A stretch of DNA of 42,782 bases from Planctomycetota bacterium. GTDB lineage: Bacteria > Planctomycetota > Planctomycetia > Pirellulales > UBA1268. Position 1 is the stretch's first letter, and each line of letters opens with the position of its first letter. Location of the stretch: NCBI GenBank assembly GCA_016872925.1, contig VGYR01000001.1:1-42782 (forward strand), in the 5' to 3' direction. Of the stretch, positions 5,690 to 28,233 are shown in pieces. Below the pieces are notes generated by a model. It worked only from the letters and a program-made list of their open reading frames with translations. It had not been told where the DNA came from and did no database searches. The position numbers and the translations under genes are program-made.

Positions 5690-7246
5690 ATGCCTCACCC
5701 GTCGCCGGCCGGCCATCGGCCCGGCATGCTGGCCGCCGGCATGCTCATGTGTGTCGCTCTGTTCGTTGCTCCCGCCGCTTGCAACGCAGAGCAAGGCACG
5801 CCCATCTTCGACGGCACGTCGCTGGCCGGCTGGGAAGGCAGGCCGGATTTCTGGAGAGTCGAAGACGGCGCCATCGTCGGCGAGACAACAGCCGAGAAGC
5901 CGACCAAGGGCAACACGTTTCTGATCTGGCGGCAGGGGCTCGTCGATGACTTCGAACTCACGCTGCAGTACCGGATCACGGGCACGCCGGCCGCCAACAG
6001 CGGCATCCAGTACCGGAGCCGCGACCTGGGCGACTCCGTCGTCGGCGGCTACCAGGCCGACTTCGAAGCCGGCCCGACCTACTCGGGCATCGTCTACGAG
6101 GAGCGGGGCCGCGGCATCCTCTGCCAGCGCGGCCAGCGGGCCACGATCGCCGCCGACGGCGGGAAGCACGCCGGCGAACCGATCGGTGACACCGCCGAAC
6201 TCCAGAAGACGATCCGGCCTGACGACTGGAACGACTACCGGATCGTGGCCCGCGGGCCGCTGCTCCAGCACTTCATCAACGGGCGGCTGATGTCCGAGGT
6301 GCTCGACGAGCAGGCCGACAAGCGGTCGCTGCAGGGCATCCTCGCCCTGCAACTCCATGCCGGGCCGCCGATGAAGGTGGAGTTCAAGGACATCCGGCTG
6401 AAGAGGCTGAAGCTGGCGGATGGTCGCAGGAAGCTCGTGCTGGTGGCGGGCAAGCCGAGCCACGGCCGGGGTGAGCACGAGCACCGGGCCGGCGTGATGC
6501 TCGCGGAGAAGTGTCTCGACGCGCACTTCGGCGGCGAGCCGCTGCCCCGGCTGGTGACCGAAACCTACACCGGCGGCTGGCCCGCAGACCCCACTGCCTT
6601 CGACAACGCCGACGCCATCTTCTTCTTCGCCGACGGCGGCGACGGCCACCCGGTGCTGCAGAGCAACCGGCTGGCGCAGGTCGACGCGCTGGCCAGGCGG
6701 GGCGTGGGCATCGCCTGCCTCCACTACGCCGTGGAGGTGCCGAAGGAAAACGGCGGTCCCGAGTTTCTCGAGTGGCTGGGCGGGTATTTCGAGCCGCACT
6801 GGTCGGTGAACCCGCACTGGACGCTCGCGGACACGCAGCTCGCCGAGGGCCATCCGATCGTCCGCGGCGTGAAGCCCTTCGTGACCAACGACGAGTGGTA
6901 CTACCACATGCGGTTCCGCGATCCGCCGGAGGGGCTGACGCTGATCCTCACGGCCGTGCCGCCCGACGACACCCGCCAGCGGCCGGACGGACCGCACAGC
7001 AACAATCCGACGGTCCGCAACGGGAAAGGTGGCCGCGAGGCGCTCGCGTGGGCCTACGAGCGACCCGCGGGTGGCCGCGGCTTCGGCTGCACGGGAGCCC
7101 ACTTCCACCGCAACTGGGCCAACGACGACTTTCGCACGATGATGCTCAACGCACTCGCCTGGACGGCCGGCCTCGACGTGCCGGAGGGGGGCATCACCTC
7201 GAGCGTGTCGGCCGAAGAGGTCGCGGCGAACCTGGATCCGAAATAG
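5690..7246 (+). CDS. DUF1080 (3-keto-disaccharide hydrolase-like) / ThuA-like fusion protein, secreted
   Basis: Signal peptide. The DUF1080 pattern [68 protein letters not shown]. Then a ThuA-like half ([18 protein letters not shown]...). Confidence 0.85.
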
Positions 7247-7290
7247 GTTTCGGAACCGATCGATTCACCCGCCCACGAAGGAGGCAGGCG

Positions 7291-7647
7291 TTGCCCACGA
7301 TCACGGTCGAAGGAACAGGGGCGTTCGAGGTACCTGCCGGCAAACGTCTGGTGAACGCGCTCGCCCACGAGTGCGGCACGGACCAGCTCCACGCCTGCGG
7401 TGGCGTGGCCCGCTGCACGACCTGCCGGGTCGAGTTCGTGGCCGGGGAGCCGGCGCGGATGACCCAGGCCGAGAAGGACGTGCTCGCGGCCAAGGGCGTG
7501 ACGACCCCGGGCGTGCGGCTCTCGTGCCAGATCGCGTGCGACGCCGACATGACGGTCCGGCTGATCAGCCGCTTCGAGGGCTCGGGCCGCAAGGACTGCG
7601 GCCACCGCTGCGGCGACGCGATCGAGCCGCCGCCGCAGTGGGGATAG
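7291..7647 (+). CDS. 2Fe-2S ferredoxin
   Basis: TTG start 6 nt after AAGGAGG (7278..7284), in frame with ORF 6511..7647. Cluster ligand pattern C-x5-C-x2-C ... C (HACGGVARCTTCRV ... LSCQI). Confidence 0.8.
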   Translation: MPTITVEGTGAFEVPAGKRLVNALAHECGTDQLHACGGVARCTTCRVEFVAGEPARMTQAEKDVLAAKGVTTPGVRLSCQIACDADMTVRLISRFEGSGRKDCGHRCGDAIEPPPQWG

Positions 7648-7649
7648 GG

Positions 7650-8004
7650 CGACTCGATCACCCGTGCCCCTGCCACATCCGGATGGCAGGTTCGCGGAAA
7701 GGTCGCCGGCCTTGCAGAGGAGCGCGGGTTTTCAACCCGCGGTGCAGTCGGCACAGGTTGGAAACCTGTGCTACTCCCCCGACCGGCCTCCCTGCACCTC
7801 TCCTACCGCGAGGCGTTGGCCGTCCGCGCTCACCGACCCGCACTCAGCGCGGGGTTGCCCGTGCCCCGCGAGCCGGCGTATGCCGCCAAGCGCAGCCAGG
7901 ATGGCGAAGCGCCGGCGGCATCCGAGTGAACGAAGGGCAGGATGCCCTGAGTGAACGTCCGGCGACGGGGCACGGGCAGCCCCGCGCCACCCGAACGGCC
8001 CGCG
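7650..8004. repeat. Intergenic mosaic repeat locus A
   Basis: Hairpin module H1 GCAGAGGAGCGCGGGTTTTCAACCCGCGG (7714..7742) also occurs at 26548..26577. Hairpin module H2 CACAGGTTGGAAACCTGTG (7752..7770) has a relative at 29671..29688. A partial long module L (7904..7990) aligns with 29711..29875 and with the reverse complement of 26571..26733. Inverted 18-bp arms at 7851..7868 and 7966..7983. Confidence 0.85.
7669..7690 (+). terminator. Candidate stem-loop terminator after the ferredoxin gene
   Basis: CCTGCCA-catccgga-TGGCAGG hairpin 22 nt after the stop codon, followed only by TT. There is no real U-tract, so this is weak. Confidence 0.25.
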
Positions 8005-9378
8005 TCACTTCGCGCCTGCCACGCCGAACAGCCGCTCGACGATCCCGGCGACGTCCGTCATCGCGAGCGACTCCGCGGCGGTGATGTCGGGCCGCGACGC
8101 GATCAGGATCGTCTCGTGCGGATTCGCGGGATCGACTGCGCCGTGGGAGCCCTTCACGAGCGCCGGGTCGAGCGGGATCGCGATCTGCGGCAGCCGCGTG
8201 CGGTCGAGGTGGAGCTCCAGCGGGTCGTAGCCGGGCTTGCGGTGGATGTCGATCGTCCGGGCGAAGGTCGGCGCACGCGCCTCGTCGAGCCAGGAGAAGT
8301 AGGTCTGCCAGGAGTCGAGCGTGCTCTCGATGAAGAGGTCGCCGCAGCGGTTCATGGAGCGTGGCTGGCCCGGGGCCACCAGTCCGGCCGTCACGAGTTC
8401 CTCCCCCCGGAGCACCCGGCCCACCCCTGCCCTGCCCCGGAAGAGATCGGCCACCGACACCGCATCGGCCGGATCGCGCAGGAACACGTGGCCGATCTGG
8501 TGGTCGGCGAGCGTCCACGCCCGGCTGCCCGTCAGGTCGAGGATCTCGCCGTCGGACGTCTCGCGCACCGCCAGCAAGCCAGCCTCCCGCAGGATGCGAT
8601 TGGGATGCACCGCATGCGACACCGGTCGGATCCTGTATTCGCCGGCCACGAGGACGACGAGGTCGTCGCGGCCCACGAGTGCGCCGAAATCGTCGAGCAG
8701 CGTGCCGATCTCGGCGTCGAGTTCGCCGCAGGCTGCGTGGGCCTGGGGACTGTCGGGACCGGTGCGTTGCGCGGCATAGTCGAGGTGCGGCAGATAGACG
8801 AAGGCCAGGTCCGGCGGCGCGGGACGCGACGCCTCGACGAAGCTCCGGGCGATCCACCGCGACGACTCGATGCCGGCGGCCGGCCCCCAGAACTTGTGGA
8901 GCGGAAACTCTCCGAGCGTCTCGCGCAGCCCGGCGTAGAGCGACTCCGGATTCGTGTGGCACCACATCGTCTCGGTGCCGTCGGCGTTGTGCCTGGGCGC
9001 GGGCAGGCAGACGAGGTCCGCGGTCGCATGCTTCGACTGGAGCAGGAACCAGGCCGCCGTGCGGGCCTGGGGGCGGGCCGCCTTGAGCCGGTCCCAGAGC
9101 CGCGGCGCGCGGTGGACCGAGTCCGGACTGATCCACATCTCGAGGTGCTCGGAGCCGCGGTCGAACAAGCCGTTGGCGACGACCCCATGCGCGGCAGGCC
9201 CGGTTCCGGTGGTGAGCGCGGCCTGCACCGGACAGGTGACCGCGGGGAAGCCCGGGGCGAGCGGCACCGCGCGGCCGGCGGCGGCGAGGCCGGCGAGCAC
9301 GGGCATCCGCGGCAGGTCCTCGGCCCGCAGGCCCGGAATCGAGAGCAGGAGCACGTGCGGACCGTGGGGCGTGGTCAT
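8005..9378 (-). CDS. Alkaline-phosphatase / nucleotide pyrophosphatase-phosphodiesterase family protein (EboF-like)
   Basis: Full ORF of 457 aa. N-terminal VLLLSIPGLR and TCPVQAALTTG match the metal/nucleophile region (T.P......TG) of type I phosphodiesterase/NPP enzymes. ATGA overlap with the upstream gene. Confidence 0.8.
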   Translation of the reverse strand: MTTPHGPHVLLLSIPGLRAEDLPRMPVLAGLAAAGRAVPLAPGFPAVTCPVQAALTTGTGPAAHGVVANGLFDRGSEHLEMWISPDSVHRAPRLWDRLKAARPQARTAAWFLLQSKHATADLVCLPAPRHNADGTETMWCHTNPESLYAGLRETLGEFPLHKFWGPAAGIESSRWIARSFVEASRPAPPDLAFVYLPHLDYAAQRTGPDSPQAHAACGELDAEIGTLLDDFGALVGRDDLVVLVAGEYRIRPVSHAVHPNRILREAGLLAVRETSDGEILDLTGSRAWTLADHQIGHVFLRDPADAVSVADLFRGRAGVGRVLRGEELVTAGLVAPGQPRSMNRCGDLFIESTLDSWQTYFSWLDEARAPTFARTIDIHRKPGYDPLELHLDRTRLPQIAIPLDPALVKGSHGAVDPANPHETILIASRPDITAAESLAMTDVAGIVERLFGVAGAK

Positions 9379-10223
9379 GCGGCGGACGCTCCGGCGAGGA
9401 GGGGGGCGAGAATCATGGCCGAGTCCCGGGCCGTCTCCAGCCAGCGGTGCGACTGCCGGGGCAGTTCGACGTGCAGGGGCCCGTCGTAGCCGGCGGCAGC
9501 GAGAGCGGCGACCGCCGCGGCGAGGTCGACCTCCCCGGAGCCCAGCGGCAGGTGCTCATGACGGCAGGCGCGCATGTCGTCGACGTGCACGTTGGCGATC
9601 AGCCCTCGCCACGGCACGAGGTGATCGGCGTAGGGCCGCTCGCCCATGCACTCCAGATGCCCGACGTCCACCGTCAGCCGCAGCCGTTCCGGCCGGCCCA
9701 GCCTGTCGACGATGGCCGCCGCCCGTGCGAGCGTGTCGATCACCATCCCGGGTTCGGGTTCGAGGGCGACCGTCACACCCCGGACGGTGGCATGGTCGAC
9801 GATCGTCGCCAGACCTTCGGCGACGCGATCGCAGCAGGTCTCGACGGGCGCACGGTCGCGGCCGATCCCCGACCAGAGCGACACGCACGGTGCCCCGAGG
9901 GCGGCTGCGACGTCGATCGCCCGACGGCTGAAGTCGATCCGTCGGGCCCGGGCCGAGGCATCGGCCGTGACGAGCGTGGGTTCGTGCTTCACGGCGGGAT
10001 CGAGGAGGTGGCGGGCTCCGGTTTCGACCACGCATCCGAGCCCCGCCGCCTCGAGGGCGCGCCGCCACCTGGCGACGCGGGCGGCTACGTCGGCCGCGAA
10101 GGGGTCGATCGTGTGGTGATCCAGCGTGATCGCCAGCGACGCATAGCCCAGGTCGCGGAGCTGCGGCACCGCGACGAGCGGGTCGACATCGGCGATCGAG
10201 TTGGTGCTGAAGCCGAGCCGCAT
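9375..10223 (-). CDS. Xylose-isomerase-like TIM-barrel protein (sugar phosphate isomerase/epimerase family, EboE-like)
   Basis: Full ORF of 282 aa. VALEPEPGMVIDT, VDVGHLEC, NVHVDDM and HLPLGSGEVD are typical of the AP-endonuclease-2/xylose isomerase-like TIM barrel. Confidence 0.8.
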   Translation of the reverse strand: MRLGFSTNSIADVDPLVAVPQLRDLGYASLAITLDHHTIDPFAADVAARVARWRRALEAAGLGCVVETGARHLLDPAVKHEPTLVTADASARARRIDFSRRAIDVAAALGAPCVSLWSGIGRDRAPVETCCDRVAEGLATIVDHATVRGVTVALEPEPGMVIDTLARAAAIVDRLGRPERLRLTVDVGHLECMGERPYADHLVPWRGLIANVHVDDMRACRHEHLPLGSGEVDLAAAVAALAAAGYDGPLHVELPRQSHRWLETARDSAMILAPLLAGASAA

Positions 10224-10229
10224 GACACA

Positions 10230-11150
10230 TCAGGTGGGGGACACGAGCCGGCGGCCGAGCAGGAACCAGGCGACGAGCGTGATCACGACGAGCGCCCAGC
10301 GCTCGCCGCAGGCCGCCAGCACGAGCACCGCGTCGAGCGTGATCAGCGACATGATCGCATTCCCCACCGCGGCCCGCACGCGGCCCGCGGCCGGATCGGC
10401 GACGGCCTGCGCCACCCGCACCAGGATCGACGCCGCCAGCAGGCCCCAGCAGGCGAGCCAGGTCGTCGCCGGCAGCGACGCCGTGCGAACGATCCCCTCC
10501 AGCAGCGTGGGGCCCCAGACGTACCCCGCAGTCACGGCGAGCCCGACGGCCATCGCGGCGCCGCCGGCGGCCACCGCCGCCCGCCGGCTGCGCGTCGCCT
10601 CGTCGCGGGCCACGAGCGTGATCCCTGCCACGTAGATCGCCATCCCGGCCGGGATCGCCCACTGCCAGGGAGCGGCCGGCCCGCCTGCCGCGGTCATGCC
10701 GAGGATCCAGTTGAGCGCCCGGCAGGCACCCATCACCACCGGCCCGGCCGGCGTGGCCTTTGCATGCCGGTCATAGAGCCAGATCGCGACGGTCATCGCG
10801 GCGCCGACGAGGGCCGGCCAGGGGCTCTGCGCCGCCAGCGCCGCCCCGCACGCCGCCGCCGCACCGATCGCCATCAGCACGCTGCCGGCCAGCGCGGCGA
10901 ACCGAGGGTCGATCGCACCACTCGGCAGAGGCCGCTCGGGCCGCTCTGCCCGATCGAGGGCCAGGTCGCAGACGTCGTTCAGCACCACCCCCGCGGCATA
11001 GAAGGCGATCGACGCCAGCACGGCGAGCCCGCAGCTCGCGGGCGGCCAGTCGATGGTCGTGAGCCGCGACACGACCAGAAACCCTGCGAGCGAGTCGGCC
11101 GCCGCCGTGGCCAGGTTCGGCAGCCGCACGAGCCGCAGCCACGCCAGCAT
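10230..11150 (-). CDS. UbiA-family aromatic/polyprenyl prenyltransferase (EboC-like)
   Basis: Polytopic membrane protein. First Asp-rich motif NDVCDLALD. Second region WLYDRHAK. ATG 11150 lies 1 nt after the upstream stop (a GTG at 11168 is the alternative start). Confidence 0.85.
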   Translation of the reverse strand: MLAWLRLVRLPNLATAAADSLAGFLVVSRLTTIDWPPASCGLAVLASIAFYAAGVVLNDVCDLALDRAERPERPLPSGAIDPRFAALAGSVLMAIGAAAACGAALAAQSPWPALVGAAMTVAIWLYDRHAKATPAGPVVMGACRALNWILGMTAAGGPAAPWQWAIPAGMAIYVAGITLVARDEATRSRRAAVAAGGAAMAVGLAVTAGYVWGPTLLEGIVRTASLPATTWLACWGLLAASILVRVAQAVADPAAGRVRAAVGNAIMSLITLDAVLVLAACGERWALVVITLVAWFLLGRRLVSPT

Positions 11151-11151
11151 G

Positions 11152-12018
11152 TCAGACGAGCTCCACACCGGCCGCCGCCGCCACGGCGAGCAGGTGGGCG
11201 CGGGCCGCGCAGGCCGCGTCGTCGGGGCGATCCCGATACGGGTAGAGCTCGACCGTCACCCAGAGGTCCGGCGTGTGGGCGGCGATGGCCCGGAGCGTGG
11301 CCGCGAAGTCGATCGCCCCCTCGCCGGGCACGAGGTGGTGATGCACGCGGGTGGCCGCGATGTCTTCGACGTGATAGTGCCGCGTGTGGGCCTTCATCCG
11401 GGGCACCCACTCGGCGGGATCCTCGCCCACACAGTAGGCGTGGCCAACGTCGAAGTTGAGGCCGAGCGCCGGATGGTTCACCCGCCCGGCGAACTCGAGG
11501 TACTGGCCGAAGGTCTCGATCAACAGGCCCGGCTCCGGCTCGATCAGGAGCCCGATCCCGCAGTCGGCGGCCACGTCGAGGGCGGGCATGATCTCGTCGT
11601 AGAAGATGCCGGCGGCCTGCTCACGGGTCTGCCCCGGCTGGATCTCGCCCCCCGGCTCGGTGGAGATGTGGCTGGCCCCGAGTTCGGCGGCGAGCCGCAA
11701 GGCCCGCTTCGTGTGCTCGCGGCGGATGGCCCGGTAGTGCGGGTCGGGGTCGGTCCACCCCGGATGCCAGTAGGGCTGCCGCGGATCGGCGATTGCATTC
11801 ATCATGAACGCGTTGATGTTCGACACGACGAGGCCGCTGGTCCGCAGCGCCCGCCGGATCGACTCCTTCTGCACCTCGAGCAGCCCGGCCGGCCAGGCAT
11901 GCGGCACGTCGGCGAGCAGTTCGATGCCGCCGTAGCCGAAGCCGGCGATCCGCTCGATCGCCTGCTCGACCGGCGCGTCGAGATACGCATTGGAACTGAA
12001 CGCGAGGCGAAGCGGCAT
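11152..12018 (-). CDS. Second xylose-isomerase-like TIM-barrel protein, paralogous to 9375..10223
   Basis: ATG 12018 (MPLRLAFSSNAY). LLIEPEPGLLIETF, FDVGHAYC, HYHVEDI and HLVPGEGAIDF mirror the motifs of the other TIM-barrel gene. Confidence 0.8.
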   Translation of the reverse strand: MPLRLAFSSNAYLDAPVEQAIERIAGFGYGGIELLADVPHAWPAGLLEVQKESIRRALRTSGLVVSNINAFMMNAIADPRQPYWHPGWTDPDPHYRAIRREHTKRALRLAAELGASHISTEPGGEIQPGQTREQAAGIFYDEIMPALDVAADCGIGLLIEPEPGLLIETFGQYLEFAGRVNHPALGLNFDVGHAYCVGEDPAEWVPRMKAHTRHYHVEDIAATRVHHHLVPGEGAIDFAATLRAIAAHTPDLWVTVELYPYRDRPDDAACAARAHLLAVAAAAGVELV

Positions 12019-12049
12019 GCACGGAGATCCCTTGAACTTCTGCTCCAAG

Positions 12050-12055
12050 ACTATA
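12050..12055 (-). promoter_or_regulatory. Possible -10 box (TATAGT) upstream of the TIM/UbiA/TIM/phosphatase genes
   Basis: TATAGT on the minus strand 32 nt upstream of ATG 12018, inside the only sizeable gap (196 nt) of the ten-gene array. I see no well-spaced -35 (a TTGCCG lies 22 nt upstream). Confidence 0.2.
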
Positions 12056-12214
12056 GCCGGCACCGGCCCACCGCGGACGGCAACAGCCCGGCGGAGGCAC
12101 GCGCAGGAGGCGGGGAGCTTTGGGCCCCGCAAGCCCCGCTCGGTTCCGTCGGGTCGGTGAACTCACAAAGCCCCCCGGCGACGAGCATGTCCTCCGCCGG
12201 GCTGCGGCGCACCC

Positions 12215-12436
12215 TCACGGCCAGAGAATCACCCGCGTCTCCACCCAACGGGGCCGCACCGGCAGCCGCTCGAGTTCGGTGTAGACCATGGCGGAGGGAT
12301 TCACCTCCCGCGATTCCATCTCGGCCACGTGTCGGGCCACCGCGGCGCAGCGGCCGATCCACGGCAGGCCGCCGCACCAGACGACGCCGAGCCCGGCCAC
12401 GACCGCGGCGAGGCGCAGCGGGCCGCCGGGACTCAC
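12215..12436 (-). CDS. Small (73 aa) single-TM protein of unknown function
   Basis: Not a separate ORF in the track; it is the tail of shadow ORF 12215..13726. The GTG start overlaps the TGA of the upstream transporter (GTGA). Codon third positions are almost all G/C. Sequence: (M)SPGGPLRLAAVVAGLGVVWCGGLPWIGRCAAVARHVAEMESREVNPSAMVYTELERLPVRPRWVETRVILWP. Confidence 0.55.
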   Translation of the reverse strand: MSPGGPLRLAAVVAGLGVVWCGGLPWIGRCAAVARHVAEMESREVNPSAMVYTELERLPVRPRWVETRVILWP

Positions 12437-13845
12437 GGCTCCACTCCCTTCCGGAAGAGCCAGCCGAAGGTGAGGCTCGCCATCGCCAGCGAGAGGGCCA
12501 GATTGAGGCACTGGCCGCCGACATAGAGCGCCAGCGGCCGGCCGCTGGCGAGAACCGGGGCGAGTTCGCGGAAGTTCGTCTCCAGCCCCATGCACACGAA
12601 GCCGGCGCAGAACAGCCAACCCCGCAGCCGCGACGTGAATCCGGTGGTCGAGCCGTCGATCCAGAGGGCGAACTCGGGCGACCGGCTGAACAGCCACGAA
12701 CAGACGAGCGAAGCCGCGAGAAACCCGAGGATGAACCGGGGGAACCGCCCCCACGCCTCGGCCAGGAGCGAGTCCCGCCGCGGGCCCGTCGCGCGGTCCA
12801 CCCAGCCGGCCCAGTAGACCGCGACCGCGAAGGCGATGATTCCGATCATCGAGTTCTGGATCATCTTCACGGTGGCGGCCACCTCGCCAGCCTCCTTGCC
12901 GAGCGACTCCCCGGCCGCAACGACGGCGCCGGTGGCGTCGATCGTGCCCCCGATCCAGGCGCCCCCCACGACCGGGTCGAGCCCCAGCCACTCGATGACC
13001 GGCGGCATCGCGACCATCATGATCACGGTGAAGAACAGCGACAGCCCGATGGCCAGCGACAGCTCCTCCTTCCGGGCCCGGCAGGCGGCTCCGGTGGCGA
13101 TGGCCGCCGACACGCCGCAGACCGACATGTCGGCCGACACCACCATGCAGAGCGCCTTCGATGGAATCCTGAGGAGATGCACCCCGACCCAGTAGGTGAC
13201 GACCAGCACCACGGGCGTGACCACCCACGAGGTCAGCAGCCCCGGCAGCCCGAGTTCGAGCAGCCGGCTGAAGAGCACCTCGGCCCCGAAGACCACGAGC
13301 CCGGTCTTGATGAGGTACTCGCCGGCCAGCGCCCGCCGCAGCCAGGCAGGCACGCCGACGACGTTGCCGATCAGGATGCCGAGCAGCAGCGCCCAGAGCG
13401 GATACTCGAGGTTGTAGAAGTGGATCACCTTCTGCGCCGCCAGCAGGTAGGCCGACGCCGCGAGTCCGGCGAGGCCCACGGCGCCCGGCAGGACGCCGAC
13501 CGCCGTCCGCCCACCGAGCGCCGCCCCGGCCACGGCCACCGCCACGACCCAGGCGCCGCCGAGGATGATCGGCACGGCGACGGACCGGCCCTGCTTGTCG
13601 TGCAGTGCCGCCAGCGGGTCGTCGGCCCAGGTCTGGGGCTTGTCGATCGTGCGGGAAAGCGGCGTGGGCCAGCCCTTGGGCCATGCCGCCCGACTCGCGG
13701 CGTTCTCCGGCGGCCGCGCGGACCACGTGACGGCCAGCGCCAGCGCGACGAGCGCCGCGCCGACGATCGTCGCCACCATGTCCTCGGGCAGCCCCGGCCT
13801 GGGTGTCGGCAGTCTTGCGTCCGGCATGGCGATCGTCCGTGGCAT
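12433..13845 (-). CDS. YeiH/UPF0324-family putative (sulfate-type) exporter
   Basis: 470-aa polytopic membrane protein. VVSADMSVCGVSAAIATG and GGTIDATGAVVAAG resemble the UPF0324 (YeiH) family. The start is uncertain (ATG 13845 or 13827). Confidence 0.7.
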   Translation of the reverse strand: MPRTIAMPDARLPTPRPGLPEDMVATIVGAALVALALAVTWSARPPENAASRAAWPKGWPTPLSRTIDKPQTWADDPLAALHDKQGRSVAVPIILGGAWVVAVAVAGAALGGRTAVGVLPGAVGLAGLAASAYLLAAQKVIHFYNLEYPLWALLLGILIGNVVGVPAWLRRALAGEYLIKTGLVVFGAEVLFSRLLELGLPGLLTSWVVTPVVLVVTYWVGVHLLRIPSKALCMVVSADMSVCGVSAAIATGAACRARKEELSLAIGLSLFFTVIMMVAMPPVIEWLGLDPVVGGAWIGGTIDATGAVVAAGESLGKEAGEVAATVKMIQNSMIGIIAFAVAVYWAGWVDRATGPRRDSLLAEAWGRFPRFILGFLAASLVCSWLFSRSPEFALWIDGSTTGFTSRLRGWLFCAGFVCMGLETNFRELAPVLASGRPLALYVGGQCLNLALSLAMASLTFGWLFRKGVEP

Positions 13846-13858
13846 CCTCCGCCGAGAA

Positions 13859-14677
13859 TCAACTCGAGGCCGAACGATACCGCGCCAGGGCCCGCTGAAA
13901 CACCAGCCTGGAGGCGATCAGCGACGCGATCGCGGCGATCACGGCCGCCGCCACCGCTCCCCACGCCTCGCCCGTGAGGGGTTGGGCGATCACGCGGGCC
14001 GGCACGTTGACCACCAGCAGGATCGGGATCACGAACGTGCAGACCGTCCGCAGCGGACCGCCCCAGGGACCGGCATAGATCTCCGCGGGATAGCGGGAGA
14101 AGTTGGTGAGATAGAACCAGAAGTCGTAGAGGCTCTGGTTGCGGCCCATCAGGATCGTGGCGGCGGCGAGCATGATCACGAGCCCGTAGAGGATCGCCAC
14201 GCCGCAGAGCAGCAGCAGCGGGTAGAGCAGCCAGGTGATCGCGGGCGGCGTGTGGTCCATCCGCCCGAGCGCCCAGGCGAGCAGCCCCACGCCCACGAGG
14301 CCGTTGGCCAGCGACGAGAAGTCGACCCGGTGCAGCGAGAGCAGAAACTGCGCGTCGAGCGGCTGCACGAGCACGGCGTCGAGCCCGCCGGTGCGCACCA
14401 TCTCCGTGAGCTCCTCGGCGCTCGGCATGAAGAAGGCCTGCACGATCGCGTTGATGATCAGCCCGGTGGCCACGAAGGCGAAGAACGGCGCCTTCGACCA
14501 GCCGCTCCCCTTGCCGATCTCGGGCGTGTAGGTGAACACCAGCAGGTAGAACGCCAGGTTCATCGACATCCAGCCGAGGCTCGTGACGCACTCGAGGATG
14601 AAGTTCGCCCGGAAGGTCATGTCGCGAACCAGGCATGCCCGCGCGAAGGTGCCGAAGATCGACAGGTAGCGGTTCAA
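13859..14677 (-). CDS. ABC-2-type transporter permease (second permease subunit)
   Basis: TTG start overlapping the upstream TGA (TTGA), with GGAG 8 nt upstream. LNRYLSIFGTFARACLVRDMTFRANFILE... is the typical N-terminus of the uncharacterised ABC-2 permease family. Multiple TM helices. Confidence 0.75.
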   Translation of the reverse strand: MNRYLSIFGTFARACLVRDMTFRANFILECVTSLGWMSMNLAFYLLVFTYTPEIGKGSGWSKAPFFAFVATGLIINAIVQAFFMPSAEELTEMVRTGGLDAVLVQPLDAQFLLSLHRVDFSSLANGLVGVGLLAWALGRMDHTPPAITWLLYPLLLLCGVAILYGLVIMLAAATILMGRNQSLYDFWFYLTNFSRYPAEIYAGPWGGPLRTVCTFVIPILLVVNVPARVIAQPLTGEAWGAVAAAVIAAIASLIASRLVFQRALARYRSASS

Positions 14678-15729
14678 GCGGGTCGCTCCGTCGGTCGGGA
14701 CTCTCGGTCGCCGGGCCGGATGTAGATTTTTCCCTGGCTCGTCGACGCCAGCAGCCCGGGCAGGCTCGTGGGGATGGCGGCGAGCGGGACGTGCGCGCGG
14801 GGCCGCGTCCGCAGGTCGGAGGCGAGCAGTCGCCGGGCAGTTCGCAGAAACCGCGAGATCCGCAGCAGTCCCAGCGGACTGCGATCCTTGAATTCCCCCG
14901 ACACCCAGTAGCCGGTGACGGTCTGCCCGCGAAAGATCAGGTCGCCCGGGTTGACCGTCGATTCCTTGCCGGACAAGACACCGTAGACCGCGATCGTGCT
15001 GCCCGGCGGCATGCACGCGGCGAGGGTGCCGGTCAGTTCGCCGGCCACCGCGTCGGCGGCCCACGTGGCCTCAAGGTCCCGGGCGAGCGCCGTGAGCGAT
15101 TCCGCGAAGTCGGCGCGGCTGGCGTCCAAGACGTACGTGCCGCCGGCCGCCTGCAGTTCGGCGACGAGGGCTTCGCGATGCACGATGTTGATCAGGGGGA
15201 AACCATGCCGGCGACTCAGGCGGATCAGCATCCGACCCAGCTGCGATGCCCCGGCGGTGTGGATCATCGCCCGGTGCCGCCCCCTGATCACGGGCCGGGC
15301 GAGGCCCAGGGCCGTCAGCGGATTGACGAAGGCCGACGCGGCCGACTCGTCGCTGACGGCGGCGGGGATCGGCATCGCCTCCATGGCCTTGAGGACGATG
15401 TATTCCGCCCAGAAGCCCTGGCCGGCCTGCACGGCTCCGGCCACGCGCGTGCCGACGAGCCGATCGGCGAGCCAGCCGCCCCCCGAGGCGACGACGATGC
15501 CGCAGCCTTCGAAGCCGGGCACCACCGGGAGCGCGGGGGGAGACGCGTAGGTCCCGAAGCAATACAGGACGTCCGATGGATTCACCGGCGAACAGATCAC
15601 CCTGACGAGGATCTCGCCGCGGCGGGGCACCGGGACAGGAAGCTCGACGACGCGGATTCCCGCCGGACCAGAAAACGTCTCCAGCAGCGCTGCCCGCATC
15701 GTCGTCGAGCCATCCGGCAGTTGCTTCAT
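14674..15729 (-). CDS. MDR-superfamily NAD(P)H-dependent oxidoreductase (quinone-oxidoreductase / enoyl-reductase-like)
   Basis: GEILVRVICSPVNPSD, PVVPGFEGCGIVV and dinucleotide motif HTAGASQLG. I see no obvious structural-zinc Cys cluster. Confidence 0.8.
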   Translation of the reverse strand: MKQLPDGSTTMRAALLETFSGPAGIRVVELPVPVPRRGEILVRVICSPVNPSDVLYCFGTYASPPALPVVPGFEGCGIVVASGGGWLADRLVGTRVAGAVQAGQGFWAEYIVLKAMEAMPIPAAVSDESAASAFVNPLTALGLARPVIRGRHRAMIHTAGASQLGRMLIRLSRRHGFPLINIVHREALVAELQAAGGTYVLDASRADFAESLTALARDLEATWAADAVAGELTGTLAACMPPGSTIAVYGVLSGKESTVNPGDLIFRGQTVTGYWVSGEFKDRSPLGLLRISRFLRTARRLLASDLRTRPRAHVPLAAIPTSLPGLLASTSQGKIYIRPGDRESRPTERPA

Positions 15730-15747
15730 GATGGAAACGCTCCGGTG

Positions 15748-16620
15748 TCAGCCGCCGAAGGCCGCGTAGCGGCGCGTGCCGCGGCGCCAGGCAATCCGGC
15801 AGGCGATCGCCATTGCCACCACCCACGCGGCCTCGATCGCCAGCGACCCCAGCAGTTCGGGTCCGCGGACCTTTCCCAGCCAGACGGCCGAAGGGAAGTA
15901 GGCGGTGTATTCGAAGGGCAGCCAGTGGACGACGTCGGCGAGGCTCACGCCGCCGCTGCCGACGGGCACCGTCCGCAGCAGGTCGATCGGAAACATGTGG
16001 CCCGAGAGCAGGTACTGCACGAGCATGTAGCCGAACACGATGCTCGACACCTCCATGAACCAGAAGCCGAGCATGCCGAGCGTGGCCTCCATGAAGAAGC
16101 CGAGCAGGAACGAGAGCACCAGCGAGAGCAGGAAGGCGGCGATCGTCGTGGCGTCGGGGACGGGCGGGAAGTAGCTGCGGCAGAGGAAGAACACCAGTCC
16201 GAAGGGGACCACCGCCACCGCGTAGTAGACGAGCTTGTGGGCCACGCGGGCCGCCAGCAGGAACGACACGTAGTCGACCGGCTGGATCAGGAATTTCTTG
16301 ACCGAGCCGTCGCGGACGCTGCGGGCGATCCCGCCGGCCAGCCCCGGCATGCTGGAGAAAGCCCGGGTCAGCATCGTGAGCAGGTAGTAGGCCACGATGT
16401 CGTTCCGCGAGTAGCCGGCGATGTCGCTGCGGCTGGTCGCGGAGAACACGGCCGTCCAGAGGAAGACCTGCGTGACGATCGGCAGGAACCGCATCAGCGT
16501 GCCCAGGGCGAAGTCGCCCCGGTAGACGAGCCGCTCCTCCAGGCAGATCTTCAGCATGGTCCACCAGGTCGAGAGGCCCCGGAGAGGATCCCGCAAGGCA
16601 GCGGTCGCCGCTCTGCTCAT
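15748..16620 (-). CDS. ABC-2-type transporter permease (first permease subunit)
   Basis: 290-aa polytopic protein. ATGA overlap with the ATPase gene. N-terminus ...MLKICLEERLVYRGDFALGTLMRF is typical of the family. Confidence 0.8.
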   Translation of the reverse strand: MSRAATAALRDPLRGLSTWWTMLKICLEERLVYRGDFALGTLMRFLPIVTQVFLWTAVFSATSRSDIAGYSRNDIVAYYLLTMLTRAFSSMPGLAGGIARSVRDGSVKKFLIQPVDYVSFLLAARVAHKLVYYAVAVVPFGLVFFLCRSYFPPVPDATTIAAFLLSLVLSFLLGFFMEATLGMLGFWFMEVSSIVFGYMLVQYLLSGHMFPIDLLRTVPVGSGGVSLADVVHWLPFEYTAYFPSAVWLGKVRGPELLGSLAIEAAWVVAMAIACRIAWRRGTRRYAAFGG

Positions 16621-17675
16621 CGGCCGGCCTCCGCCGCGGCGGCCTCGCGGGCGTCGGTGCGGAAGAGTTCCGCCACGATCTGCTCCAGGGGCACGTCCTC
16701 GACCGACACGTCGCGGACTCCCGTCGTGCCGAGGATCTCGGGCAGCACGTCGGCGATCCGGCCGCGGTCGATCCGCAGCACCACCTGCGGGCCGCGGAAC
16801 TCGCAGGGGAATCCGAACCGCTCGATGCGGCTCCGGTCGGGAGCCTCGTCGAGGTCGAGCGTGACGATCTTGTGCGTCGTGAACCGGTCGACGATCTCCG
16901 CCAGCGAACCGTCGTAGAGCACCTCGCCGCGGGTGATCACCACCACCCGCTCGCAGAGGGCCGCCACGTCCTTCATGTAGTGCGTGGTGAGGATCACGGT
17001 CATCCGCCGCCGCCGCTGCACGTCGCGGAGGAAGTCGTGGATCGTGTGCTGGGCGACCACGTCGAGGCCGATGGTGGGCTCGTCGAGAAACAGCACCTCG
17101 GGCTCGTGCAAGAGGGCGGCCACCAGTTCCAGCTTCATCCGCTCGCCGAGCGAGAGTTCACGGACCGGCTGGAGCACCAGCCGGCGGACTCCCAGCAGGT
17201 CGACCAGTTCGTCGCGGGTCTTCTCGAACCGGGCCGGCTCGATCCGGTAGATCTCCTGGTGCAGCCGGAAGCTCTCGGCGGCGGGCAGGTCCCACCAGAG
17301 CTGGTTCCGCTGCCCCATCACCAGGGCGAAGCGGCGACGAAACTCGTCGGCCCGCTCCCAGGGCACGTGCCCGAGGACCGTGGCCGTGCCGCGGGATGGC
17401 GTGATGATGCCGGAGAGGAGTTTGAGGAGCGTGGTCTTCCCGGCGCCGTTGGGCCCGAGCAGGGCGACGAACTCCCCCCGCCCGACCTCGAGATCGATGC
17501 CCTTCACCGCCTCGACCACCCGGCTGGTGCGATGGACGAGGGCCCGGATGCTCGCCGCGAGCCCCTCCGGCTTGTCGTAGACGCGGTACTCCTTGGCGAG
17601 GCCCGCCACATGGATCACCGGATGGATCACCGGCTCGGAGGCCCCGGCCATGCCGCCGAGATCGGTGTTGTGCAT
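16617..17675 (-). CDS. ABC transporter ATP-binding protein (ABC-2 exporter type, with C-terminal extra domain)
   Basis: Walker A GPNGAGKTT, signature LSLGERMK, Walker B LFLDEPT. Start ATG 17675 (alternative 17651). The longer listed ORF 16617..18260 runs antisense into ispF. Confidence 0.9.
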   Translation of the reverse strand: MHNTDLGGMAGASEPVIHPVIHVAGLAKEYRVYDKPEGLAASIRALVHRTSRVVEAVKGIDLEVGRGEFVALLGPNGAGKTTLLKLLSGIITPSRGTATVLGHVPWERADEFRRRFALVMGQRNQLWWDLPAAESFRLHQEIYRIEPARFEKTRDELVDLLGVRRLVLQPVRELSLGERMKLELVAALLHEPEVLFLDEPTIGLDVVAQHTIHDFLRDVQRRRRMTVILTTHYMKDVAALCERVVVITRGEVLYDGSLAEIVDRFTTHKIVTLDLDEAPDRSRIERFGFPCEFRGPQVVLRIDRGRIADVLPEILGTTGVRDVSVEDVPLEQIVAELFRTDAREAAAAEAGR

Positions 17676-17724
17676 GGCGGGAGTATAGGGGAAAACCGTG
17701 TCCGCCCCGCCGGAGTCCGCGAGC

Positions 17725-18201
17725 ATGTTCCGCATCGGTCTTGGCCACGACACCCACCGCCTCGGTCCCGGTGACACCCTCGTGATCGGCGGCGTGAGGA
17801 TCCCCCACGACCGAGCCGCGATCGGCCACAGCGACGCCGACGTGCTCCTGCACGCGATCACCGACGCCCTGCTGGGCGCCGCGGCGCTGGGCGACATCGG
17901 GCAGATGTTTCCCGACACGGCCCCGGAGAACAGGGGCCGTGACTCCGCCGACATGCTGCGGCGGGCGGCGGACGCCGTCGCCGCGGCGGGTTGGCGGCTG
18001 GTGAACCTGGATTGCGTGATCTTCGCCCAGCGGCCCAAAATCCTCCCGCATCGGGCCGCGATCCGCCGGCGGATCGCCGAGACCCTCGGCGTCGACGAAG
18101 CGGCCGTGTGGCTCAAGGCCAAGACGGGCGAGGGCGTCGGCCCGATCGGCGAGGAACGTGCGATCGCCGCCGAGTGCGTCGCGCTCGTCGAGCGGGCATG
18201 A
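17725..18201 (+). CDS. ispF: 2-C-methyl-D-erythritol 2,4-cyclodiphosphate synthase
   Basis: MFRIGLGHDTHRL...GHSDADVLLHAITDALLGA...DIG..FP: canonical IspF motifs, 158 aa. Confidence 0.95.
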   Translation: MFRIGLGHDTHRLGPGDTLVIGGVRIPHDRAAIGHSDADVLLHAITDALLGAAALGDIGQMFPDTAPENRGRDSADMLRRAADAVAAAGWRLVNLDCVIFAQRPKILPHRAAIRRRIAETLGVDEAAVWLKAKTGEGVGPIGEERAIAAECVALVERA

Positions 18202-18229
18202 CCGGACACCCTGAGGAAGCGAAGGCACG

Positions 18230-19792
18230 ATGGCGGACGCGGTGAACGGACTCCCGACAATCGAGATCTACAGCACGCTGACCCGGGCCAAGGCGCCGCT
18301 GGTCACGGTGAAGCCCGGGCACGTGGGCATGTATCTCTGCGGCCCCACGGTCTACAAGCCGAGCCACATCGGCCACATGGTCGGCCCGGTGATCTTCGAC
18401 ACCGTGAAGCGGCACCTCGTCTCCTCCGGCTGGCGGGTGACGTGGGTCGTGAACGTGACCGACGTGGACGACAAGATCATCGCCGAGAGCACGGCCCGCG
18501 GCACCACGATGGCGAAGCTCGCCGAGGAGATGACCGCCGACTACCTGGAGAACCTCGCGGCGCTGGGCGTGACCGGCATCGACGAGATGCCCAAGGCCAC
18601 CGAGCACATCGGCACGATCATCACCTTCATCGAGGAACTGATCGCCAAGGGCTGCGCCTACGCCAGCGACGGCGACGTCTACTTCGACGTGACCCGCGAT
18701 GCCGACTACGGCAAGCTCACCAACCGCTCCGTCGACCAGATGCAGGGGGAGGGAGGCTCGACGGCGGATCGGAAGCGGTCGGCGGCCGACTTCGCGCTCT
18801 GGAAAAAGGCCAAGGCGGGCGAACCAGCCTGGGAGAGCCCGTGGGGCCCCGGCCGGCCGGGTTGGCACATCGAGTGCTCGGCGATGAGCAAGGCGATCCT
18901 GGGGCCGCACTTCGACATCCACGGCGGCGGTTTGGATCTCGTGTTTCCGCATCACGAGAACGAGATCGCCCAGAGCGAGTCGCTCCACGATTGTCCGATG
19001 GCCACGTTCTGGATGCACAACGGCCTGATGCAGGCCGCGGGGGCCGCCGGCAAGGTGGGGGGCCGCCCGCGGGGCGAGGCCGGCTCCACCGACGACGCGG
19101 CCGCCCAGGCGGCCACCAAGATCTCGAAGTCGACGGGCGCCGAGCCGTTCAAGAACCTGCTCGCCCGGCATCGCCCCGAGGCGATCCGTGCGCTGCTCCT
19201 GTCCACGCACTACCGCAGCCCGATCCATTTCGGCGAGGAGCCGCTCGGCGAGAGCGCCCGGGCGATGGAGGCCTTCGAGCGGCTCTTCATCCGCTACCAG
19301 CGGGTGAGCGGCAAGACCTTCCATGCCCTGCCGTGCCGCGACCGCCGTGCCGGCGACGCGGCCGTCCCGGCGGCCGGTGACGACGCGAAGAGCCTGCGGG
19401 AAAAGTTTCTGGCGGCGATGGACGACGACTTCAACACGGCGATCGCGATCGCCTCGCTCTTCGACTTCGTCCGCGTGGTCAACAAGTTCATCGACCAGCA
19501 CGGCCTGGAGGCCAAGAAGCCCGCTGCCGAACTGGCCACGCTCGACGCGATGATGCTCACGCTCCGCGAGCTCACGGGTGTGCTGGGCCTGTTTCTCGAG
19601 CCGCCGCAGCAGCCCTCCGGCGGTGCCGACGACGGACTGGTGGCGAAGCTCATGGAACTGGTGATCGAGATCCGGGCCAACGCCCGAAAGGCGAAGGATT
19701 TCGCCACCGCCGACCTCGTGCGGAACAAGCTCACCGAGGCGGGCATCGTGCTCGAGGACCGCCCCGACGGCACCGGCTGGTCGCGGAAGTGA
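18230..19792 (+). CDS. cysS: Cysteine--tRNA ligase
   Basis: MYLCGPTVYKPSHIGH (HIGH motif), KISKS (KMSKS motif), WHIECS. 520 aa. Confidence 0.97.
   Translation: MADAVNGLPTIEIYSTLTRAKAPLVTVKPGHVGMYLCGPTVYKPSHIGHMVGPVIFDTVKRHLVSSGWRVTWVVNVTDVDDKIIAESTARGTTMAKLAEEMTADYLENLAALGVTGIDEMPKATEHIGTIITFIEELIAKGCAYASDGDVYFDVTRDADYGKLTNRSVDQMQGEGGSTADRKRSAADFALWKKAKAGEPAWESPWGPGRPGWHIECSAMSKAILGPHFDIHGGGLDLVFPHHENEIAQSESLHDCPMATFWMHNGLMQAAGAAGKVGGRPRGEAGSTDDAAAQAATKISKSTGAEPFKNLLARHRPEAIRALLLSTHYRSPIHFGEEPLGESARAMEAFERLFIRYQRVSGKTFHALPCRDRRAGDAAVPAAGDDAKSLREKFLAAMDDDFNTAIAIASLFDFVRVVNKFIDQHGLEAKKPAAELATLDAMMLTLRELTGVLGLFLEPPQQPSGGADDGLVAKLMELVIEIRANARKAKDFATADLVRNKLTEAGIVLEDRPDGTGWSRK

Positions 19793-25055: not shown

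Positions 25056-28233
<3,178 letters not shown>

Follow-up and report, generated by a model that had tools for sequence, protein, structure and literature searches.

The closest described relative of the locus studied here is the ebo operon, which comprises the genes for EboA, the TatD-like EboB, the UbiA-like EboC, the cyclase EboD, the TIM-barrel protein EboE and the PF01663 protein EboF (PMC5133447). This operon was first tied to the export of a scytonemin precursor (PMC6282210) and, in May 2026, to the biosynthesis of thallusin, a picomolar algal morphogen, with EboC acting as a farnesyltransferase that farnesylates hydroxyquinaldic acids (bioRxiv 10.64898/2026.05.21.724671); its product is a prenylated cyclitol-derived metabolite (bioRxiv 10.64898/2026.05.21.724671; PMC5133447). 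The same preprint reports that each of eboB, eboC, eboE and eboF is indispensable in Stieleria maiorica, a planctomycete in which these genes are scattered, that EboA is absent from Planctomycetota, a phylum with few conserved operons, and that ebo core genes occur in several planctomycete orders according to permissive MMseqs2 matches (bioRxiv 10.64898/2026.05.21.724671). In this work we analysed a ten-gene array, g1 to g10, carried by contig VGYR01000001.1 of a Planctomycetota bacterium (assembly GCA_016872925.1), which includes an ATP-binding cassette (ABC) exporter of the ABC-2 type and an EboC-like membrane prenyltransferase of the UbiA superfamily.

Our findings suggest that the array is a composite, in which a conserved planctomycete core formed by the ABC-2 exporter and the EboC-like UbiA protein is combined with helper enzymes and with later insertions, and that it would serve the synthesis and export of a prenylated compound; we give this reading a probability of about 0.55. 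Since the MDR oxidoreductase and the YeiH-type transporter of the array are lineage-specific, it is better regarded as a version, so far uncharacterised, of a cluster type already known than as a ten-gene machine.

The window, that is the whole stretch of 42,782 nucleotides analysed, has a GC content of 71%, and frame-specific GC together with the listing of open reading frames (ORFs) gives all ten array genes a coding GC pattern, with a GC content at third codon positions of 0.86-0.95. A preliminary description of this DNA had placed ten co-directional genes on the minus strand, from 17675 down to 8005. All coordinates and families were reproduced, and the recomputed junctions are identical: -4 (ATGA), +18, -4 (TTGA), +13, -4 (GTGA), +196, +1, +6 and -4 (ATGA) nt. 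The TATAGT hexamer mentioned for the 196-nt gap at 12019..12214 was also found. The features are as follows:

17725..18201, plus strand: ispF (2-C-methylerythritol 2,4-cyclodiphosphate synthase), divergent neighbour, PF02542 201 bits, sharing a 49-nt control region with g1
17682..17687, minus strand: P1, -10-like TATACT, 6 nt 5' of the g1 ATG, from cross-locus conservation
16617..17675, minus strand: g1, ABC ATPase (ABC_tran, DrrA-like, ABC-2 type), PF00005 89 bits, conserved core
15748..16620, minus strand: g2, first ABC-2 permease (ABC2_membrane_6), PF06182, conserved core, 4-nt overlap with the g1 stop
14674..15729, minus strand: g3, MDR or quinone-oxidoreductase-like protein, ADH_N and ADH_zinc_N, lineage-specific insertion
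13859..14677, minus strand: g4, second ABC-2 permease (ABC2_membrane_6), PF06182 122 bits, conserved core, TTG start
12433..13845, minus strand: g5, YeiH-family membrane protein, 470 aa, PF03601 161.5 bits, clade-restricted accessory
12215..12436, minus strand: g6, 73-aa single-pass membrane protein, no family, one hydrophobic segment
12050..12055, minus strand: P2, -10-like TATAGT, 31 nt 5' of the g7 ATG, from cross-locus conservation, candidate internal promoter
11152..12018, minus strand: g7, xylose-isomerase-like TIM barrel (MJ1311, AsbF or IolI-like), PF01261 127 bits
10230..11150, minus strand: g8, EboC-like UbiA-superfamily membrane prenyltransferase, anchor of the cluster, PF01040 60.6 bits
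9375..10223, minus strand: g9, TIM barrel (UlaE or xylose-isomerase-like), PF01261 143 bits
8005..9378, minus strand: g10, NPP or alkaline-phosphatase-superfamily protein, variable component, PF01663 144 bits

Conservation of the exporter and prenyltransferase genes

Related loci, cited below by their L numbers where needed, were collected in two sets. The close set holds 80 loci from a genome scan seeded with the UbiA protein g8, all in Planctomycetota/Pirellulales metagenome-assembled genomes with a UbiA identity of 47-79%; they were mapped by tblastn with the ten proteins and their flanks, and the layout was confirmed by independent gene calls with precomputed Pfam. The distant set holds 80 further loci from a metagenome scan with a profile of distant g8 members (34-62% identity to g8). 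All counts cover the assessable loci only. Since the arrangement of the array recurs in dozens of independent assemblies, it is more than chance.

The make-up of the transporter, with one PF00005 ATPase, two PF06182 permeases and no binding-protein gene in the array, is that of an ABC-2 exporter, for which the predicted direction is outward. The closest NCBIfam types of g1 are the exporter ATPases DrrA, GldA and NodI, the score on TIGR01188 (drrA) being 203 bits, below the cut-off of 312, and g1 is 68-91% identical in close loci and about 60% identical in distant ones. In the close loci the backbone of the cluster is cysS and ispF on one strand and, divergently, the ABC ATPase, permease, permease, (YeiH, g6), (TIM7), UbiA, TIM9 and (PDE), where TIM7, TIM9 and PDE stand for the genes of the g7, g9 and g10 type, followed by convergent genes for a ferredoxin (fer2) and a ThuA-domain protein. 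In 36/36 close loci the position immediately upstream of the UbiA block, on the same strand, is taken by the ABC genes, and in 11/23 distant loci by the ABC-permease-permease triad (ABC3), usually with ispF-cysS beyond. The possibility that the two halves are adjacent in this genome alone can be set aside, since the link holds across planctomycete lineages down to a UbiA identity of 35-43%. It is kept in three architectures: ABC3-[YeiH-g6]-TIM7-UbiA-TIM9-[PDE], ABC3-UbiA-PDE, which in the distant loci is without any TIM gene, and ABC3-TIM7-UbiA. The distant set also shows ABC3-TIM7-UbiA-[TIM9]-[PDE], a desaturase-like gene followed by UbiA-TIM9-PDE, TIM7-UbiA alone and UbiA-TIM9 alone. The physical linkage of an ABC-2 exporter to a membrane prenyltransferase module, proposed from the window, is therefore borne out, often with tight or overlapping spacing: in distant lineages the gap from permease to UbiA is 8-74 nt, that from permease to TIM7 is 2-42 nt in 4/6 loci (133 and 330 nt in the other two), and TIM7 and UbiA overlap in 4/12 loci (-4, -4, -14 and -20). 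An all-against-all clustering of neighbouring ORFs left only TIM, PDE, ABC, ispF and cysS as recurrent in more than 7 loci.

The assignment of g8 to the UbiA superfamily is given by PF01040 (60.6 bits against a gathering threshold of 34.2), by the invariant Asp-rich motif N58-D59-xx-D62-xxx-D66 and by an all-helical AlphaFold2 model (mean predicted local distance difference test 90.8), which matches UbiA-fold structures with a probability of 1.00, the best being digeranylgeranylglyceryl phosphate (DGGGP) synthase, the Aeropyrum enzyme ApUbiA and a phosphoribosyltransferase (PRTase) of the Rv3806c type. A role as quinone or haem prenyltransferase (MenA, UbiA, CtaB, CyoE) was considered and rejected, the only NCBIfam matches being EboC, SCO3242, DGGGP synthase-like and ChlG. 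An exhaustive search with g8 among 1.84 billion representatives returned 219 clusters at E<=1e-30, with identity dropping from 50-52% to <=44% after the first few matches. The ABC-less loci hold genes recognised by eye as DUF1501- and DUF1559-type, which suggests that the g8 family is largely planctomycete. In a protein collection clustered at 90% identity, the exact g8 sequence is filed in a cluster in which the representative and the members listed are 288-aa 'sugar phosphate isomerase/epimerase' proteins resembling g7; gene calls that are fused or overlap have probably misled the clustering here.

Generic scans of 7000-18400 returned no sigma-70 consensus promoter and a single terminator-like site, inside g2, which is fewer than expected by chance, with none between genes; the RNA fold of the 196-nt g6-g7 gap was not significant (z = -1.3), without sign of a structured RNA or terminator. 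As these scans were uninformative, the evidence for promoters comes from cross-locus conservation. In aligned upstream regions, 27/27 close loci carry the block GTTTTC(C/G)CCTATACT with 6 nt between it and the g1 ATG, and the equivalent of P1 in distant loci is a TATAAT 6-9 nt before the ABC ATG. A -10 box placed 6 nt before the ATG corresponds to the spacing of leaderless mRNAs, and P1 may be read as a promoter of the leaderless type. Ahead of g7, 51/52 loci have a TAnnnT hexamer, for the most part between -40 and -31, which is kept even where about 40 nt separate the stop of permease g4 from g7; in most loci without g7 a similar box precedes UbiA, and 0-23% of loci show the hexamer upstream of g2, g4, g5, g6, g8, g9 and g10. 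The tight co-directional spacing fits a single operon. Since g7-g10 has its own conserved -10-like box, two transcription units, g1-g6 and g7-g10, are probably present in this clade. One obligatory unit of ten genes is thus improbable, given the conservation of P2 and the unrelated or opposite-strand genes found at the junctions of other loci.

Within the 49-nt region between ispF and g1 (17676-17724), the conservation extends past the plain -10 hexamer, at the same position in L002-L079. This suggests a regulator site or a bidirectional control region shared with ispF.

Of all proteins of the cluster, the soluble g7 is conserved best, with 80-95% identity in close loci and 62-70% in distant ones, where UbiA has 35-43%. 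Its profile matches in the PDB are MJ1311, the dehydroshikimate dehydratase AsbF, UlaE and IolI; those of g9 are UlaE and xylose isomerases. TIM7 is present in 65/70 close loci, TIM9 in 51/52 close and 12/34 distant loci, and PDE in 25/52 close and 14/34 distant loci. No hydrophobic segment was detected in g7, g9 or g10, nor was an obvious signal peptide seen on inspection of their translations, and for this reason the three proteins are probably cytoplasmic.

Several observations weigh against a conserved synthesis-and-export core. The UbiA block is without an adjacent ABC exporter in 12/23 distant loci, including two, apparently identical in sequence, where a single divergent permease gene stands alone; export by the ABC pump is therefore not obligatory. 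The set of helper enzymes varies between lineages, which makes a single fixed pathway unlikely. Two of the six canonical NPP metal ligands are missing from g10: in alignment with the Xanthomonas NPP, an Asp is replaced by Pro15 and a His by Gln204, both invariant in 19 sequences, and the nucleophile Thr48 is kept, so that the metal site or the chemistry of g10 is probably altered. Opposite-strand genes split the cluster in some relatives, one for an isocitrate dehydrogenase (by eye) between UbiA and TIM9 in L040 and L048, and one of 850 aa between permease and YeiH in L059 and L072. Moreover, all of the approximately 160 loci were found via UbiA, and the ABC triad was thus seen in UbiA-bearing loci only. 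Finally, ispF, usually with cysS, adjoins the array in every ABC-linked locus that reaches far enough, and this shared neighbourhood indicates that vertical inheritance explains part of the conservation.

This last point leads to the first alternative, in which the ABC exporter, YeiH, the oxidoreductase and the UbiA/TIM/PDE genes are independent units, adjacent because they lie on one inherited segment that includes ispF-cysS. The housekeeping flanks of the close clade (cysS, ispF, ferredoxin, ThuA-domain gene, DUF1570 and thiC) are indeed syntenic, and conservation within that clade alone cannot separate function from inheritance; ispF is adjacent in 34/36 close and 10/23 distant loci. Likewise, P2 would give g7-g10 a promoter of its own, half of the distant UbiA loci are without ABC neighbour, and unrelated genes are tolerated at junctions, some on the opposite strand as above, others as in L016, with a large gene for a cytochrome-c-containing protein (by eye) between the permeases, or in L168, with alpha/beta-hydrolase and ceramidase-like genes (precomputed Pfam) between g6 and TIM7. 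However, the adjacency of ABC and UbiA is still seen where UbiA identity is down to 35-43% and that of CysS to about 55-60%, and this in a phylum described as poor in conserved operons, it outlasts the loss of both TIM genes (type B loci) and of YeiH, and 12/14 permease junctions have a spacing of 2-74 nt, some loci with overlaps, as is typical of co-transcription. Pure synteny is therefore considered unlikely.

Relation to the ebo operon

The array had also been described as carrying an ebo-like core. A second alternative goes further and takes it as the planctomycete ebo itself, making saccharoquinoline, thallusin or a close analogue, with g8 as EboC, g10 as EboF, g7 and g9 in the place of EboE, and EboB encoded elsewhere. 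EboC (NF035940) is the top-scoring named family for g8, with 180.3 bits over the full length, followed by SCO3242 (NF045897) with 137 bits, but the respective cut-offs of 250 and 260 are not reached. The same holds for 20/20 representatives sampled from the 150 nearest 50%-identity representatives, which score 155-204 bits on EboC and 122-175 on SCO3242; a canonical EboC among the nearest representatives is therefore rejected for these 20. As the sampled members fall below both cut-offs, the g8 family appears, on these profile scores, to form a branch of its own, coherent and the third next to both curated EboC-type families. On the EboE model (NF035939, cut-off 250 bits, about 380 aa), g7 and g9, both of 282-288 aa, score 26.9 and 17.6 bits, and their PF01261 matches are strong, in contrast to the marginal PF01261 match of canonical EboE. 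The protein g10 shares PF01663 with EboF (144 bits), a match at the Pfam level only, and has two metal ligands replaced.

As to the remaining components, no EboA match to NCBIfam was found among the cluster proteins, no dehydroquinate synthase-like EboD (PF01761-type) among the scanned ORFs of the window, and no TatD-like EboB hydrolase in the window; an EboD-like cyclase was also missing from the recurrent neighbour clusters and from the few neighbours scanned, most neighbours in related loci lying outside the scan. That PF01663 and a TIM barrel recur beside UbiA, joined in distant loci by a TatD-like gene, would agree with ebo, as would the survey that, with permissive MMseqs2 matches, reports ebo core genes in several planctomycete orders, but planctomycete ebo genes are stated to be scattered (bioRxiv 10.64898/2026.05.21.724671), whereas the present genes are clustered. 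Altogether, the chance that the array is ebo itself is small; the ebo-like core gives way to a paralogous family that is not the ebo operon. The assignment of ebo to thallusin biosynthesis (bioRxiv 10.64898/2026.05.21.724671) supersedes the view of it as acting in metabolite traffic.

Tentatively, with somewhat less than even odds, we hypothesize that these loci form a third, previously undescribed branch of EboC-like clusters, mainly or wholly planctomycete by gene context and ancestrally with an ABC-2 exporter head-to-head with ispF, which makes and exports a new prenylated compound, either a lipid of the envelope or a metabolite used in signalling, that would be the counterpart to thallusin in planctomycetes abundant in fresh and marine waters.

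In the neighbour clustering, TatD-like and desaturase-like genes were found in 6 loci each. The TatD-family gene, matched at family level, is 64-86% identical between loci; it is convergent to the PDE gene in L099, L105, L112 and L122, whereas L108 has it at a greater distance downstream and L140 has it upstream of the ABC genes, and it is absent from the window. Clusters with this gene thereby hold the full set of ebo-like enzyme classes; in L105, L112 and L140 it stands beside the ABC3-UbiA-PDE architecture, which is without TIM genes. The membrane desaturase-like gene lies directly upstream of UbiA-TIM9-PDE, on the same strand, in L126, L149, L117, L116, L121 and L125, all of one distant lineage. 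Its product has the His boxes HRLLTH, HRRHH and HNNHH and resembles delta-9 desaturases; its score on the DesA-family model, 103 bits, does not reach the cut-off. UbiA in L119 is followed by a gene that looks CDP-alcohol phosphatidyltransferase-like by eye. Both the desaturase-like and the phosphatidyltransferase-like neighbours are lipid-related.

Lineage-specific genes and surroundings of the array

The MDR gene g3 had been regarded as a reductase working within the synthesis and export system. It was present in 0/36 close and 0/23 distant loci, and a search of the 80 close loci at E<=10 gave two chance-level fragments only. In the relatives, the g2 stop (TGA) is followed after 1 nt by the g4 start (GTG or ATG), and it is exactly at this junction that the window carries the MDR cassette, with the TTG start of g4 overlapping the MDR stop. 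An MDR gene between the permeases is limited to a narrow subclade (L163, L168-L170), in the 351-aa form. Homologues with 82-86% identity, of 333 aa, are encoded by genes that stand alone in planctomycete contexts unrelated to this one; g3 is longer than these by 18 residues, with 9 residues at the N terminus and 11 at the C terminus left unaligned. Between subclade and window the MDR proteins are 95% identical and the ABC proteins 83-86% (DNA 86.5% over 13921-18201), which argues for selection on the MDR gene at its position. The MDR gene is thus a maintained lineage-specific addition that stands outside the conserved system.

Regarding g5, membership of the YeiH family is given by PF03601 (161.5 bits against 24.5). 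On TIGR00698 the score is only 78 bits against 232, and because of this, and of an N-terminal extension of about 120 aa, g5 is taken as a divergent YeiH subfamily; other gene callers place its start six codons later, which gives 464 aa. YeiH is found in 22/36 close and 0/23 distant loci, and g6 goes with it in all but one locus (L055), the two genes being directly adjacent, with g6 often overlapping the YeiH stop codon. In an alignment of 16 sequences g6 has 19 invariant residues and most members end in LWP; the protein has no match in Pfam or NCBIfam. It consists of an N-terminal hydrophobic helix followed by HV..ME..(E/G)VNPAAMYYTELERLP.RP.W, and may be a subunit of the YeiH-type transporter. 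Since the top 120 YeiH homologues all come from the same clade and the same position, the independence of this module is judged by presence and absence alone. YeiH is accordingly not a part of the general system but, with g6, a clade-restricted accessory pair. Of the block formed by ABC-2, MDR and YeiH, which the preliminary description suggested looking for beside UbiA in other genomes, the ABC genes are found there, the MDR gene in one narrow subclade only, and YeiH in the close clade only. In L069 (4281-6012), genes that by eye are bestrophin-like and beta-carbonic-anhydrase-like are inserted directly before YeiH, which hints that the YeiH module handles small anions and not the prenylated product.

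A last alternative, in which all ten genes form one integrated system where the MDR enzyme reduces a prenylated intermediate and the ABC-2 pump and YeiH both export, can draw on the co-directional order with four 4-nt overlaps and on an intact MDR gene that is translationally coupled to g4 and better conserved in the sister lineage than the ABC genes, but as a general system it is largely refuted and has very little probability, given an MDR gene that is missing elsewhere and stand-alone in its close homologues, a YeiH/g6 pair that is absent from all 23 distant and from 14/36 close loci, the neighbours of YeiH in L069 (by eye), which would point to anion transport, and the conservation of P2.

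The idea of synthesis plus export, inferred as it is, thus remains plausible for the composite's core and does not extend to a ten-gene system with reductase and YeiH. Insertions of another kind were seen between the ABC ATPase and the first permease in L055 (2659-6010) and L035 (4639-5757), where the GC content is 59-61% against about 70%. By eye, that of L055 holds a Fic-domain gene like 'mobile mystery protein B', which has a helix-turn-helix partner, and in addition a gene for a DnaQ-like exonuclease; that of L035 holds a Fic-like gene only; these would be mobile DNA inside the transporter operon.

The array is bordered at one end by the divergent ispF and cysS genes and at the other by a convergent 2Fe-2S ferredoxin gene and then a 3-keto-disaccharide-hydrolase/ThuA gene. 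The ferredoxin gene, at 7291-7647 (+) with a TTG start and 118 aa, between the ThuA-domain gene and g10, was not listed previously; its homologue is called Fer2 in related contigs. As for ispF, it lies next to the UbiA block in L093 and L102, where the ABC genes are missing, and in L140 and L152 it is downstream of PDE, on the same strand, and again borders on the UbiA block. This persistence could be the outcome of simple deletions or inversions, and it is also conceivable that supply through the methylerythritol phosphate pathway is linked to the g8-type prenyltransferase.

A palindromic element of about 140 nt, with the appearance of a repetitive extragenic palindrome or a miniature inverted-repeat transposable element, has two copies in the window (7847-7987 and 26650-26789), one just 3' of g10 and the other intergenic upstream of thiC, in opposite orientation and aligning at about 75-80%. 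Its 22-nt terminal inverted repeats, CGGGGCACGGGCAGCCCCGCGC-like, are 95% complementary and 97 nt apart, and the region near g10 folds much better than shuffled sequences (z = -5.4); the exact arm occurs in none of the 170 fetched loci. An Rfam scan of the whole window at gathering thresholds gave no match. The truncated ORF at the contig end (2-817, minus strand) looks transposase-like in translation, and the FAD-binding gene at 40936-42126, considered as a geranylgeranyl reductase, was rejected as such, being the urate hydroxylase HpxO.

Proposed function and comparison with known systems

In our reading, the conserved core consists of an ABC-2 exporter (ATPase and two PF06182 permeases) with a predicted leaderless-type promoter facing ispF, of an EboC-like UbiA-family membrane prenyltransferase encoded directly downstream, and of a variable soluble set with one or two PF01261 proteins resembling sugar or cyclitol isomerases or dehydratases, an NPP-like phospho-hydrolase and a TatD-like hydrolase, the last in some lineages only. 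Judging from their families, the cytoplasmic TIM-barrel enzymes may shape a phosphorylated sugar- or cyclitol-derived head group, to which the UbiA enzyme would add an isoprenoid chain at the inner membrane face; the NPP-like enzyme could then remove or cleave a phosphate group, and the ABC-2 transporter would flip or export the amphipathic product. The YeiH-type transporter and its 73-aa partner are a later insertion in the freshwater Pirellulales-like clade of the window, and the MDR oxidoreductase is another, placed precisely between the permease genes in one narrow subclade.

With thallusin now tied to the canonical ebo genes, a sister cluster family of about 160 planctomycete loci with its own exporter points to a second prenylated product. 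Clusters of the g8 type occur in uncultured freshwater planctomycete lineages, in many lake metagenomes, and the two predicted transcription start regions can be tested with lake metatranscriptomes. For experiments, the relevant genes are the ABC triad, TIM7, UbiA, TIM9 and PDE, and the MDR gene, YeiH and g6 need not be cloned. For genome mining, the array is a caution that a tidy co-directional order with stop-start overlaps can be a mosaic of a core and recent insertions.

Compared with the ABC-2 exporters DrrAB, NodIJ and GldAFG, the transporter shares the closest ATPase families, permeases of the ABC-2 clan and the lack of a substrate-binding protein, whereas its scores are below the curated cut-offs and two different PF06182 permeases are present. 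Our literature search returned nothing relevant on PF06182 or COG4587 transporters, no characterised PF06182 transporter and nothing on this cluster. In mycobacteria, the decaprenyl-phospho-arabinose route uses the UbiA-family PRTase Rv3806c, the phosphatase Rv3807c and an epimerase to yield a lipid-linked sugar for use outside the cytoplasm. In its logic this route is analogous, and the PRTase structure 8J8J is among the fold matches of g8, but there is no sequence orthology and the phosphatase and epimerase families differ, so that this is an analogy only. Among solved structures, the closest to g8 both by sequence (E 1e-9) and by fold (template modelling score 0.65-0.70) is DGGGP synthase of archaeal ether-lipid synthesis (PDB 6M31/7BPU), which has the UbiA fold and acts by prenylating a phosphorylated polyol lipid; however, the identity is only 17-18%, and no geranylgeranylglyceryl phosphate synthase or archaeal-lipid genes are nearby. 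The Actinomycetota-type ebo or SCO3242 cluster with ino1-3 is similar in that it also lacks eboD and has extra putative isomerases or dehydratases, and differs in that g8 is below its cut-off, no inositol-3-phosphate synthase gene is nearby here, the phylum is another one and that cluster has no ABC exporter. With the eboA-F operon, finally, the present locus shares a UbiA protein whose best match is EboC, TIM barrels of the xylose-isomerase superfamily, a PF01663 hydrolase and, in some relatives, a TatD-like hydrolase, as well as the general plan of a product that is prenylated and derived from a sugar or cyclitol. In contrast to ebo, its UbiA, TIM-barrel and other testable proteins fall outside the curated Ebo families, EboA and the EboD cyclase are missing, two canonical PF01261 proteins stand in the place of one EboE, and the genes, reported as scattered for the true planctomycete ebo, are here clustered and adjoin a dedicated ABC-2 exporter and ispF.

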